From the NCBI GenBank assembly GCA_019639255.1, contig JAHBSF010000002.1:5117-69116 (forward strand): a DNA stretch of 64,000 nucleotides, in the 5' to 3' direction. A program made the position numbers and the translations under genes. Below are positions 3,944 to 19,638 of the stretch, in pieces. The notes below the pieces were generated by a model, which was given only the letters and a program-made list of their open reading frames with translations, was not told where the DNA came from and searched no databases. Positions within the stretch are counted from its first letter, which is position 1. Each line of letters begins with the position of its first letter. The DNA is from Acidobacteriota bacterium (GTDB lineage: Bacteria; Acidobacteriota; Blastocatellia; RBC074).

Positions 3944-5149
3944 GTGCGTCCTCTCTTCCGGTTTGTGAACTTGAGCACATTGATTATAGTGTCGATAATC
4001 CGCGCGATATGTCTGCTTCCGGTTATGGGAGGATCGGTTTTCAGTCTGCTTGCTGTATGGGCGGGGGCGCGTTTTCGTCGCAGGGGCGGGGGAGTGCAGC
4101 CGGCTATATGGCCTGCGGTGAGCGTGCTCAAACCGGTTTACGGGCTGGAAAAGAATCTGCACGAGAATCTGCGCAGCGCCTGTTTGCAGGATTATCCGGA
4201 CTACGAAGTGATTTTTTCCGTGCAGCGGCCCGATGATCCCGCGCTTGCTGTGCTTGCGGAAATCGAGCGCGAATTCGGGCCCGATCGTGTGCGGGTGGTT
4301 ATAGAACAGAAGCGGCCCGGCACCAACGGAAAGATAAACAACCTTGCGGGCGGATTGCCCCGCGCGCGCCACGATGTTCTGGTCATAAGCGACAGCGATG
4401 TGCGTTTGCCGCGCGGCTATTTGCGTGCGATCATTTCGCCTCTTGCCGATGCCGGGGTCGGTTTCGTATGCACGCCTTATCGCGCCGCCGAAGCATATAC
4501 CTGGTTTGAGAAAATGGAACTGCTTTCGCTCAACGCGGACTTTATGCCGAGCGTGGTGTTTGCGTATGAAAGCGGCGCGTCGAAGTTCTGTCTGGGCGCG
4601 TCGATTGCGGTGCGGCGCGAAACGGTGGAGGAGGTGGGCGGAATCGAGGCGTTGGCGGATTATCTGGTCGAAGATTACGAAATGGGCCGCAGGATCATCG
4701 AGACGGGCAAGCGCGGCGTGCTGGTTGCTCCCGTAGTCGAAACGATGGTGGATCTGAAGCGGCCGGGCGACTGGTGGAAGCATCAGGTTTACTGGGACCA
4801 GAACACGCGCGCGGCGCGGCCGCTGGCGTTTTTCTTCACGGCGATAATTCGCGCCGTGCCGTTTGCGTTGCTGTATGCGCTGCTCGATCCGGCGAATCCG
4901 GCGGGGTGGGCGGTGCTTGCCGCCGCAGTTGCACTGAGAACGGGGACGGCCGCCTGGATTATGAGCCGCGTGTTTGAAGACCGCGAGGGCGTGCGCGCGT
5001 TGTGGCTGCTGCCGGCGCGCGATCTCTGCGGACTTCTTTCCTGGGCGCTGGCGTTTGTGCGGCGAACGACTACGTGGCGCGGCGCGAAATTCATACTGAC
5101 GCGCGACGGCAGGCTGATTGCGGAGGAGGAAGAAAGTGCTGAGTGCTGA
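3944..5149 (+). CDS. GT21-family glycosyltransferase (ceramide glucosyltransferase / HpnI-like), membrane-anchored
   Basis: There is an N-terminal TM segment. The conserved blocks match the ceramide glucosyltransferase family: 'SVLKPVYGLEKNLHENL...DYPDYEVIFSVQRPDDPA', 'GTNGKINNLAGG', 'ADYLVEDYEMGRRI'. The last ~6 codons and the stop lie inside the terminal repeat of palindromic element family 2. Confidence 0.7.
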   Translation: MRPLFRFVNLSTLIIVSIIRAICLLPVMGGSVFSLLAVWAGARFRRRGGGVQPAIWPAVSVLKPVYGLEKNLHENLRSACLQDYPDYEVIFSVQRPDDPALAVLAEIEREFGPDRVRVVIEQKRPGTNGKINNLAGGLPRARHDVLVISDSDVRLPRGYLRAIISPLADAGVGFVCTPYRAAEAYTWFEKMELLSLNADFMPSVVFAYESGASKFCLGASIAVRRETVEEVGGIEALADYLVEDYEMGRRIIETGKRGVLVAPVVETMVDLKRPGDWWKHQVYWDQNTRAARPLAFFFTAIIRAVPFALLYALLDPANPAGWAVLAAAVALRTGTAAWIMSRVFEDREGVRALWLLPARDLCGLLSWALAFVRRTTTWRGAKFILTRDGRLIAEEEESAEC

Positions 5150-5474
5150 GAAGAAGTGCTGAGTGCTGAGTGCGATTCGGAAATCAGAACTCTGTAAACA
5201 AGGTTCTTTGAGTTTTTCAGCCGCGGAGCGGCGAAAGATCTGTAGCCTGGTGCGTGAGCGCCAGGTCAGCAGAAAAAAAACGTTCAAGCCCTGAAAGGGC
5301 GAAAGATCTTCCGCCCCTCCGGGGCTGGTACGGCTTCTCTACACCCACCCAGGGCTTACGCCCTGGGCTACAGATCTTTCGCCGCTCCGCGGCTGAAAAA
5401 CTCAAAGAACTTTGTTTACAGAGTTCTGATTTCCGAATCGCACTCAGCACTTCTTCTCAGCACTTTCTTCTTCC
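5126..5474. repeat. Palindromic element family 2, copy 1 (~350 bp): long terminal inverted repeats ('...CGATTCGGAAATCAGAACTCTGTAAACAAGGTTCTTTGAGTTTTTCAGCCGCGGAGCGGCGAAAGATCTGTAGCC' and its reverse complement) around an asymmetric ~120-bp core; AGTGCTG heptad tandem repeats at both tips
   Basis: The inverted repeats were read directly. The left arm ~5126-5245 pairs with the right arm ~5355-5474. The core holds a third copy of the GAAAGATCT motif. Confidence 0.65.
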
Positions 5475-5503
5475 CCGATAACCGAGAGGGAGATGGGCGA
5501 CAG

Positions 5504-5932
5504 ATGTTCAGAGTTCTTGTTGCTGCGGCCATTGCGACGTTTTCGGGAGCGTTGGGGCAGATACTGCTGCGACGCGGAATGCAGGCCGTGGGGCCGCTTG
5601 AAAACTACGCTCCGCTGGAAATGCTCGCATACTTCTGGCGCGCGTTGATCGATCCGTATGTCATATGCGGGACGCTTTTGAGCGCGGTGTTTTATTTCGC
5701 ATTGCTTGCGGCGCTGGGCTGGACCGACGTTACGGTGGCTTTTCCTCTTACTGCGCTCGAATACGCATTCGGCGCATTGCTTGCCGTGATGATTCTTAAA
5801 GAGCGCGTGCCGGGGCTGCGCTGGACCGGCATCGCTCTGATAATTCTCGGCGTTGTACTCGTCAGTCTGACCGGAGAAGTCGATCATCCGGTCTCAGGTG
5901 ATGCAACGAAACAAATCGAAAGGAACGAATGA
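5504..5932 (+). CDS. Small 4-TM EamA/DMT-type membrane protein (ArnE/ArnF-like flippase subunit)
   Basis: 142 aa with four predicted hydrophobic helices. Its stop overlaps the next start (ATGA), so it is operonic with the DegT aminotransferase. Confidence 0.55.
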   Translation: MFRVLVAAAIATFSGALGQILLRRGMQAVGPLENYAPLEMLAYFWRALIDPYVICGTLLSAVFYFALLAALGWTDVTVAFPLTALEYAFGALLAVMILKERVPGLRWTGIALIILGVVLVSLTGEVDHPVSGDATKQIERNE

Positions 5933-18064: not shown

Positions 18065-18113
18065 AATGCGCACAGGCAATGGAATGGCGCATAAGTAAAA
18101 CTGGAGAAAATTC

Positions 18114-19340
18114 ATGCGAACACATACCGCTCGCTTACTCAACATCTCGCTCACTGTTTGTCTTTTGCCCGGCAGCCTGTTTTTTGCAGGACTCTGTTAC
18201 GCACAAGAGCCGAGCGATTTTCAGCCTGCGACGACCAATGTTTGGGGCGCTGAGTATCCGCGCGTTGACACTCAGGGGAGAGTTCAACTTCGCATCAAAG
18301 CTTCTGAGGCCAGGAAAGTCGGGATCAATTTCTGGAGCGGCCCCAAAGCCGAGATGGCGAAACAGGCGGATGGATTCTGGACGTTCACGACGCCGCCGAT
18401 GGTTCCCGGCCTGCATTACTACAATTTCGTCGTTGATGGCGTGGAAGTCAGCGATACAGGCAGTCAGGCCTTTTTTGGAGGAGGCAAGCACGCCAGCGCC
18501 GTTGAGGTTCCAGAGCCGGGCTCAACTTATTACTCGATTCAAGATGTGCCGCACGGTCAGGTGCGTGAGGTTTGGTATAACTCGGAAGTGACGGGCAGTT
18601 GGCGACACGCACTGGTCTATCTGCCCCCGAGTTATGAGACACAAACCAGGCAGCGCTATCCCGTACTTTATTTGCAGCATGGCGGCGGCGAGGATGAGAC
18701 GGGCTGGATTCGGCAGGGGCGCGCCAATTTCATCCTTGACAATCTGATCGCAGCGGGAAAGTGCAAACCCATGATTATCGTGATGGCGTATGGCTACGCC
18801 CGCCGTGCCGGTCAGACCACGCCCGCTTTGACTGGCATTCCTGCTGGTTCGCCCGAAAGAATAAGGGCGATGCAGGAAATGACCTCGGCGTTCGCGGACG
18901 ATGTCACTCAGGCTTTGATTCCATTCGTTGACAAGACCTACCGAACGATACCTGACCGCGATCACCGCGCGATGGCGGGCCTTTCGATGGGCGGAATGCA
19001 GACGTTCCAGATCACGCTGAAGCATCTCAATCTCTTTTCTTACATCGGCGGATTCAGCGGCGCGGGCGGCGGCATGGCCACTTCGCCACTTGACCTCAAA
19101 ACCGCGTTTGGCGGCGTCCTGAGCGACCCAGCGGCCTTCAACAAGAAAGTGCGCTTGGTGTGGATCGGGATCGGTACGAAAGAACCGGAGCGAATGTATC
19201 AGAGCGTCAATACCTTTCATCAAACGCTGCAGAAAGCAGGCATCAAACACATCTATTACGAGTCGCCCGGCACAGACCATGAATGGCAGACCTGGCGGCG
19301 CTCGCTCGCCGAATTCGCGCCGAGACTATTCAACAATTAG
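18114..19340 (+). CDS. Secreted esterase (CE1 / enterochelin-esterase-like alpha/beta hydrolase with N-terminal Ig/E-set-like domain)
   Basis: It has a signal peptide '[24 protein letters not shown]'. '[17 protein letters not shown]' and the GxSxG nucleophile '[10 protein letters not shown]' match the 'putative esterase' family. Confidence 0.75.
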
Positions 19341-19420
19341 CCGACCAGTGCGGCGGCGCGAGCAATGTGCGAAGCAAGCATAATTCAGAGTAGATCAGAC
19401 CGCTCGCATTCAACCTAAAT

Positions 19421-19638
19421 ACTCTGTAAACAAAGTTTTGAGTTTTTCAGCCGCAGCAGCGGCGAAAGATCTGCAGCCTATGGGTAGGTGTAGAGAAGCC
19501 GTACCAGCCCCGAAGGGGGCGGAAGATCTTTCGCCCTTTCAGGGCGTTATTTTTCTACTGGCCTGGCGCTCACGCACCAGGCTACAGCTCTTTCGCCGCT
19601 GCTGCGGCTGAAAAACTCAAAACTTTGTTTACAGAGTA
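19421..19638. repeat. Palindromic element family 2, copy 3 (~218 bp) abutting the MFS gene stop
   Basis: 'ACTCTGTAAACAAAGTTTTGAGTTTTTCAGCCGCAGCAGCGGCGAAAGATCTGCAGCC ... GGCTACAGCTCTTTCGCCGCTGCTGCGGCTGAAAAACTCAAAACTTTGTTTACAGAGTACT'. The core is the reverse complement of the copy-1 core. Confidence 0.65.

Follow-up and report, generated by a model that had tools for sequence, protein, structure and literature searches.

In a 64-kb stretch of DNA from a contig of an Acidobacteriota bacterium (JAHBSF010000002.1; the whole stretch is referred to here as the window), we find three intergenic copies of a palindromic element, all of them within 14.5 kb: copy 1 at positions 5189–5424, copy 2 at 17893–18061 and copy 3 at 19421–19637. 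Our preferred reading, to which we would give a probability of roughly 0.7, is that these are non-autonomous doublets of repetitive extragenic palindromic (REP) sequences, akin to the REPIN and BIME elements of other bacteria, and that they represent a gene-less version of a cassette otherwise built around a Y1/HUH transposase gene. Most likely, then, we are dealing with a real repeat family, made up of mobile repeats of the REP/REPIN type, and not with a gene switch. We favour a REP doublet over a classical miniature inverted-repeat transposable element (MITE) derived from a DDE-type insertion sequence (IS) because the interior modules of the element, their order and their spacing are those seen in the flanks of Y1 genes, and because the element matches the Rfam family Acido-Lenti-1.

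Three copies of one palindromic element

A first-pass annotation of the window had placed three related copies at approximately 5126–5474, 17889–18064 and 19421–19638; all three are confirmed, with the bounds of the element now refined, and its account of non-coding elements that are dispersed in both orientations and end in long inverted repeats is borne out. A 41-nt arm motif (allowing up to 3 mismatches) has 3 matches in the window against an expectation of 0, whilst GGCGAAAGATCT (up to 1 mismatch) is found 12 times against 0.56 expected, 11 of the 12 matches falling inside the three copies. The reverse complement of copy 2 agrees with copy 1 at 92.2% over 116 nt; that of copy 3 at 84.9% over 239 nt.

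The two arms of a copy are complementary at 98.8% over 86 nt in copy 1, at 97% over 60 nt in copy 3 and at 81% over 63 nt in copy 2. As in a REPIN, two inverted REPs form one hairpin whose pairing is kept: the arms (97–99% complementary) share indels and loop changes, each alteration specific to a copy recurring in its second arm. Copy 3 has lost 2 nt and has an altered loop in either arm, and copy 2 likewise shows a loop change in both. Studies of REPINs read matching changes of this kind, or arm co-variation, as a sign that the doublet is the evolving unit.

Architecture of the element

Each copy is one long imperfect palindrome with the middle AGATCT at its centre, composed of two inverted REP-type units that are joined via a central pair of small hairpins. 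Within a single unit, which corresponds to the Acido-Lenti-1 motif, a small GC hairpin is followed by a GAAAGATCT linker and then by a 20-bp hairpin with GTAG as its foot.

Reading copy 1 from left to right (tips, hairpins and linkers on the plus strand), a 31-nt tip common to all six arms (ACTCTGTAAACAAGGTTCTTTGAGTTTTTCA; 5189–5219) is followed by the small hairpin h1 (GCCGC-GGA-GCGGC; 5220–5232), a linker (GAAAGATCTGTAG; 5233–5245) whose GTAG provides the foot 5' of the large hairpin, and then the REP-like large hairpin H2 itself (CCTGGTGCG-TGA-GCGCCAGG; 5246–5265). Beyond spacer A (22 nt; 5266–5287), at the position of which Y1 cassettes carry spacers of 21–24 nt, lies the small hairpin h3 (GCCC-TGAAA-GGGC; 5288–5300); identical h3 plus GAAAGA is found directly 5' of the Y1 start codon in three related loci (L057, L070 and L032). 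The centre reads GAAAGA/TCTTCC (5301–5312; axis 5306/5307), the position taken up by the Y1 gene in related cassettes. The right half then comprises the small hairpin h4 (GCCCC-TCC-GGGGC; 5313–5325), spacer B (22 nt; 5326–5347), the large hairpin H5 (5348–5367), a linker (CTACAGATCTTTC; 5368–5380), the small hairpin h6 (5381–5393) and a 31-nt tip (5394–5424) that is the reverse complement of its counterpart on the left.

Both H2 and H5 are 20 bp long with 8-bp stems, and so fit the 20–40 bp of a REP stem-loop. A REP is marked by a GT[AG]G tetranucleotide at its 5' foot; here the foot is GTAG in four of the five arms that retain one and GCAG in the left arm of copy 3, the segment having been lost by deletion from one arm of copy 2. 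AGATCT, which contains GATC, is present in six of the eight linkers (5236–5241, 5304–5309 and 5372–5377, plus the counterparts of these in copies 2 and 3).

Considered as a whole, copy 1 is a single, ungapped and imperfect palindrome whose 145-nt arms are 84% complementary, divergence between them being confined to the large hairpins (H2 versus H5) and the two 22-nt spacers. The 'asymmetric core' of the first-pass annotation is not, therefore, truly asymmetric; and whilst the core does occur in opposite orientations, as had been stated, it is the whole element that lies reversed, rather than a separate inverted core. As single-stranded DNA, copy 1 has a predicted folding energy of -97.3 kcal/mol (z = -19.6). 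The palindrome runs on outward to about 5126–5474, and takes in the AGTGCTG heptads already seen at its tips in the first pass: this outer shell, which copies 2 and 3 do not have, is made up of a left arm (5126–5188), consisting of the heptads plus GCGATTCGGAAATCAGA and including the hpnI stop codon (TGA, 5147–5149), and a right arm (5425–5474).

The arms of the element match Acido-Lenti-1

Three regions of the window score above the Rfam gathering score of 37 bits for Acido-Lenti-1 (RF01687): 5348–5394 on the plus strand (46.9 bits), and 5219–5265 and 17923–17970 on the minus strand (37.4 and 37.5 bits, respectively); a further match in copy 3 (19562–19609, plus strand; 26.6 bits) falls below it. 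It is the arms of the element that carry the matches, each of which takes in one large and one small hairpin together with the linker between them, and the units of the window share with RF01687 both the two-hairpin structure and a GGCUA foot. The two matches in copy 1 are inverted with respect to each other, minus then plus, and each is 41 nt from the centre.

Acido-Lenti-1 was proposed as a candidate small RNA (sRNA), sometimes found near group II introns, with no link to a transposase given (Weinberg 2010, PMC2864571), and our search of the literature found no paper tying it to any transposase. In the Rfam seed alignment the motif already forms tandem arrays in Lentisphaera and occurs several times in Koribacter, and both stems show covariation. 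Whereas Rfam and the source paper treat the motif as an sRNA, in the window it constitutes one arm of a larger DNA palindrome.

The same modules flank Y1 transposase genes in relatives

Metagenomes scanned with a looser form of the arm pattern yielded eight contigs, two of which (L005 and L007) carry a 149-aa open reading frame (ORF) between h3-GAAAGA and TCTTTC-h4, with the module order and the 22-nt spacers as in the window. This ORF is assigned to Pfam Y1_Tnp (2e-22) and to the NCBIfam IS200/IS605 transposase (65 bits against a cutoff of 55), and it sits exactly where the window copies read GAAAGA/TCTTCC. Judged by their sequence, the elements of the window are the Y1 cassette with nothing at its centre; approximately 175 of the 236 bp of the element are homologous, module for module, to the flanks of Y1 genes. 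In the closest cassette (L034), h1 and the linker read GCCGCGGAGCGGCGCAAGATCTGTAGCC against GCCGCGGAGCGGCGAAAGATCTGTAGCC in the window, one base apart. Gene-less doublets, with central remnants of 0 to 20 nt, are also present in other Acidobacteriota loci (L043, L056, L012, L016 and L047). One of these loci, L016, has a Y1 gene positioned between two gene-less doublets and not inside one (2720–4027).

For a wider survey, Y1 homologues were aligned and 80 loci were fetched from species genomes by protein only, with Rfam applied at the gathering threshold. The loci derive mostly from Acidobacteriota, Planctomycetota and Verrucomicrobiota. Acido-Lenti-1 has 147 matches, distributed over 58 of the 80 loci; it lies at most 150 nt from the Y1 gene in 54 and on both sides of the gene in 27. 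Orientation is strongly biased, with 36 minus-strand versus 3 plus-strand matches upstream of the gene, and 46 plus-strand versus 6 minus-strand matches downstream. The median gap between motif and gene is 49 nt on either side, and the density of matches near the gene is 29 times that found elsewhere in the loci (3.8 versus 0.13 per kb). Across the Y1 loci, the large hairpin differs considerably in its stem sequences, with the foot kept as CTA or CTG (CTAT, CTAC, CTAA or CTGC; equivalent to NTAG or GCAG). That the motif occurs on both strands, and on either side of a transposase gene, points to a role at the level of DNA.

Tandem arrays of Acido-Lenti-1, with periods of ~72–218 nt, lie beside Y1 genes in five loci (L036 2611–2952; L070 2258–2957; L080 2636–4406; L040 645–952; L054 2335–2824) and resemble the Lentisphaera arrays of the Rfam seed. 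Such cassettes were also met on contigs binned as Nanoarchaeota, Bacillota and Bifidobacteriaceae metagenome-assembled genomes (MAGs; L042, L039 and L088, respectively); host labels that are probably binning errors.

An empty site between hpnI and eamA

In a relative whose HpnI protein is 75% identical (L091), the hpnI–eamA spacer measures 41 bp, as compared with 354 bp in the window; copy 1 and its shell (5126–5474) are absent from it, and we therefore take the two together to be an insertion. This insertion polymorphism, an empty site at the position of copy 1, supports the view of the element as an inserted sequence that the first-pass annotation had put forward. The surroundings of copies 2 and 3 provide no comparable empty site, because the corresponding region of a related MAG (L092; 21 kb around an esterase gene whose product is 90% identical, with no copy of the element) is not syntenic.

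The last codons and the stop of hpnI are supplied by the heptad shell (5126–5149), giving the protein the tail EEEESAEC*; HpnI homologues end 2–4 residues past RDGRL[IV]A. In a closer relative (L090; 91% identical), the same heptads are found 23 nt after the hpnI stop codon (5839–5877), at which point the contig ends.

The Y1 enzyme clade

Of 81 proteins of the clade, 78 carry the signature Y...Q..HH. Among solved structures, the best relatives of the clade are the TnpA proteins of IS608 and ISDra2; a profile search recovers 1,367 representative clusters at E ≤ 1e-30. Where a genome has paralogues, these are 51–53% identical to one another, and five Verrucomicrobiota MAGs from different assemblies have the same gene downstream of Y1. 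Divergent paralogues and synteny of this sort amount to RAYT-like, and not IS-like, behaviour.

The Y...Q..HH motif is that of TnpA_Y1 subclass 1.2, for which a low copy number, a general lack of terminal secondary structures and a main occurrence in Cyanobacteria and Bacteroidetes have been described (Quentin 2018, PMC6006769); we provisionally place the clade in this subclass by motif alone. In keeping with subclass 1.2, its proteins are ~150 aa long with a conserved C-terminal tail, and the few genomes that could be checked suggest a low copy number; unlike subclass 1.2, its genes lie in structured inverted repeats, and in Acidobacteriota, Planctomycetota and Verrucomicrobiota.

Some 20 of the best 150 representatives (P0361–P0376 and others) are ~290 aa long with two full Y1 stretches, and may be tandem fusions of a normally dimeric enzyme, or else two adjacent genes called as one. 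As candidates for the cognate enzyme, we also weighed the acidobacterial TIRYT proteins of Di Nocera (aba 1552, aba 3477, tsa 392 and others) and rejected them: they carry an NP motif and have a different N-terminus, and so belong to another clade.

Comparison with known systems

The closest likeness is to the REPIN/BIME–RAYT systems of Pseudomonas fluorescens and Escherichia coli, in which two inverted, GTAG-footed hairpins come together as one long hairpin (Bertels & Rainey 2011, PMC3116915; Ton-Hoang 2012, PMC3333891). Like REPINs and BIMEs, the window elements are non-coding and intergenic, occur in both orientations and have kept the pairing of their arms; as with REPIN–RAYT pairs, the Y1 gene of the relatives is flanked by inverted repeats, its paralogues are divergent and its locus is syntenic. 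They differ in that the flanked enzymes of the relatives are not class 2 RAYTs with Y...NP and instead have the class 1 motif Y...Q..HH, and in that the unit seen in the window adds a small hairpin, a conserved GAAAGA linker, a central pair of small hairpins and the 31-nt tips. Typical REPINs are also shorter than the 236-bp element of the window.

With IS200/IS605 elements, the cassettes have in common their Pfam and NCBIfam assignments and their hairpin-based ends. The ends of IS200/IS605 elements are not inverted repeats, both hairpins lying on one strand; those of the cassettes are inverted, and the gene copies within a genome are divergent paralogues as opposed to identical. Neither non-inverted ends nor near-identical copies, as an IS200/IS605 element would have, were thus found.

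A Y1 gene flanked by inverted repeats, the REPtron or TIRtron arrangement, is seen in the related loci. In TIRtrons, long inverted repeats enclose the gene for the TIRYT protein and are scattered over the rest of the genome as well, with Acidobacteria among the hosts (Di Nocera 2013, PMC3733652). The Y1 gene of the relatives similarly lies within long inverted repeats that are dispersed as a repeat family; the proteins, however, are set apart by the NP motif of the acidobacterial TIRYTs (PMC3733652) versus Y...Q..HH in the clade described here.

Proposed mechanism and significance

Drawing on the established biochemistry of IS200/IS605 and TnpA_REP, we propose the following route. The hairpins would fold in single-stranded DNA, such as that exposed at a replication fork; a Y1 enzyme, acting as a dimer and encoded elsewhere in the genome, would bind the GTAG-footed hairpins, then cut and rejoin single strands; and the doublet would in this way be moved or copied to new intergenic sites, in either orientation and with no regular target duplication. 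What the sequences themselves show is the architecture, the homology to the flanks of Y1 genes, the insertion polymorphism and the matching changes of the arms; that a Y1 enzyme mobilises the doublet, that it does so by way of single-stranded DNA, and where it would cut, are points that we infer by analogy.

Several observations weigh against interpreting the copies as Y1-mobilised doublets. A tblastn search with the Y1 protein found no Y1 gene in the 64-kb window, and just three copies of the element are known. The clade is not one of canonical RAYTs, scoring 20.9 against a cutoff of 80 for NCBIfam REP_Tyr_transpos, with no Y...NP in any of the 81 proteins. Nothing like the 31-nt tips lies around the Y1 genes examined and, among the loci compared, the tip was not found outside this family's locus; the REP-doublet reading leaves the origin and role of the tips, and of the outer shell of copy 1, unexplained. 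Finally, copy 3 may be flanked by a 5-bp direct repeat (CTAAA), which is not expected from Y1 transposition.

As a broader proposal, about which we are less sure but which we consider slightly better than evenly supported, Acido-Lenti-1 would be the hairpin-forming DNA part of a REPIN/RAYT-like system that is widespread in Acidobacteriota, Planctomycetota and Verrucomicrobiota, with Y1 proteins of the Y...Q..HH clade as its enzyme and the window elements as gene-less doublets with added 31-nt arms. If this is true, there would be a second Y1 lineage living with its own repeat populations, apart from the class 2 RAYTs; REPIN-like populations would not be confined to the latter, but would also accompany an IS200-like clade and occur in soil phyla, in which repeats of this sort have received little attention. 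An orphan 'sRNA' family of Rfam would gain a concrete and testable identity as a transposase-associated DNA repeat, and Acido-Lenti-1 matches in Acidobacteriota should accordingly not be annotated as sRNA genes. The GTAG-footed hairpins with their GAAAGA linker would offer clear substrates for probing small Y1 proteins. Of practical note, palindromes of this length can break assemblies.

Alternative explanations

The first-pass annotation had suggested a MITE-like element. An insertion with terminal inverted repeats, found in both orientations, is what we see; a classical MITE cut from a DDE-type IS it most likely is not, the interior being made up of Y1-flank modules. In its classical form, this explanation would have an internally deleted DDE-type IS with ACTCTGTAAAC terminal inverted repeats, moving by cut-and-paste with target-site duplication, and with the REP doublet as cargo or as a nested insert. 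We regard this as unlikely, although it is the alternative that survives best: the terminal inverted repeats are long and near-perfect, Y1 cassettes do not explain the 31-nt tips, TA is found beside CTCTG at both ends of copies 2 and 3, and CTAAA stands on either side of copy 3. Saying this, the same CTAAA is equally readable as an extension of the inverted repeat, and copy 2 has no duplication (TTCAG versus CTAAT); in copy 1, the palindrome simply runs on outward at the places where a duplication was looked for. The six ends compared give one candidate duplication and one clear absence. The module-for-module correspondence with Y1-gene flanks speaks for the REP doublet instead.

Nor did the searches provide a parent for such a MITE. 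No full-length IS or transposase with matching terminal inverted repeats was found, the loci compared being without the tips and the source genome not being among those searched. An exact pattern (end of the tip plus first hairpin) has 0 matches in 185,579 species genomes, a collection that does not include the source genome; none of the eight contigs from the metagenome scan has the 31-nt tips, and that scan gave no further copies of the exact family. In viral contigs, the arm pattern has 0 matches, and the 15 matches to a 17-nt part of the tip do not extend, as expected of chance.

A little less probable still is that the element is a structured small RNA gene or a cis-acting RNA element (for example, an mRNA 3' stabiliser or a terminator), in line with how Rfam labels Acido-Lenti-1. 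The RF01687 matches in the window and the covariation in both stems of the seed alignment would fit this, but such covariation is equally expected of DNA hairpins; and an RNA is hard to reconcile with Acido-Lenti-1 on both strands of each element, in inverted pairs around a transposase gene and also in tandem arrays. Copies 1 and 3 are located at stop codons and copy 3 includes one terminator-like hairpin with a T run, yet scans gave no promoter-like sites, and no more terminator-like sites than shuffled sequence would lead one to expect. It is possible that an RNA role was gained secondarily.

We think it improbable that the palindromes were generated locally, by in-place fold-back (template-switch) duplication around a seed AGATCT hairpin and without transposition. 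Arms within a copy are more alike (97–99%, with shared indels) than copies are to each other (85–92%), and the palindrome of copy 1 reaches into sequence that copies 2 and 3 lack, including the hpnI stop codon; against this, three unrelated loci have the same 170–236 bp, down to non-palindromic detail, and Y1 genes of other phyla lie within the very same cassette. Fold-back copying may nevertheless be how the arms came to be homogenised and how copy 1 acquired its outer shell.

The invertible DNA switch suggested in the first pass, with the core flipping between its 58–86 bp inverted repeats by site-specific or homologous recombination, is unsupported and, in our view, very improbable: the two orientations of the core are seen at different loci and not at one, insertion of the whole element either way round would look the same given its palindromic arms, the core contains neither a promoter-like site nor an ORF, and a scan of neighbouring ORFs revealed no recombinase domain.

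Copies 2 and 3 and their neighbouring genes

Copy 2 (17893–18061, minus strand) is reversed relative to copy 1. The 'deleted core' and 'decayed left tip' ascribed to it are both present, the former as loss of the segment between the outer and central GAAAGATCT repeats, the latter at 17893–17923. Copy 3 (19421–19637, minus strand) also lies in reverse, with its centre at 19526/19527 and one of its large hairpins reduced to CCTATGGG (19477–19484).

That all three copies abut the 3' ends of genes is correct for two of them: copy 1 meets the hpnI stop codon, and copy 3 meets that of an MFS gene (CTA on the plus strand, 19639–19641), whereas copy 2 is situated between divergent gene starts. The MFS stop directly adjoins the end of copy 3, within an ACTAA that is also found 3' of copy 2, and may be element-derived.

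Other repeats in the window

A separate palindromic family of ~120 bp (AAGAGAGATAACGGAACAAACGAAAT...TTTCGTTTGTTCCGTTATCTCTCTT) is represented by about ten copies, at 2510, 9375, 24684–24802, 26454, 32692, 34711, 38007, 54879–54976, 58555 and 61934; the copy at 54878–54976 is 98% self-complementary. Two 76-nt repeats (GGGAGAGGCGGAAA...TTTTCCGCCTCTCCC; 80% identity) are found just past gene ends at 11165–11240 and 15625–15700, and a 49-nt direct repeat (96% identity) is intergenic at 9303–9351 and 17056–17104. The longest inverted repeats of the window have their source in paralogous alpha/beta-hydrolase genes (33678–34691, minus strand; 36966–38021, plus strand) that flank a PQQ-dependent dehydrogenase.

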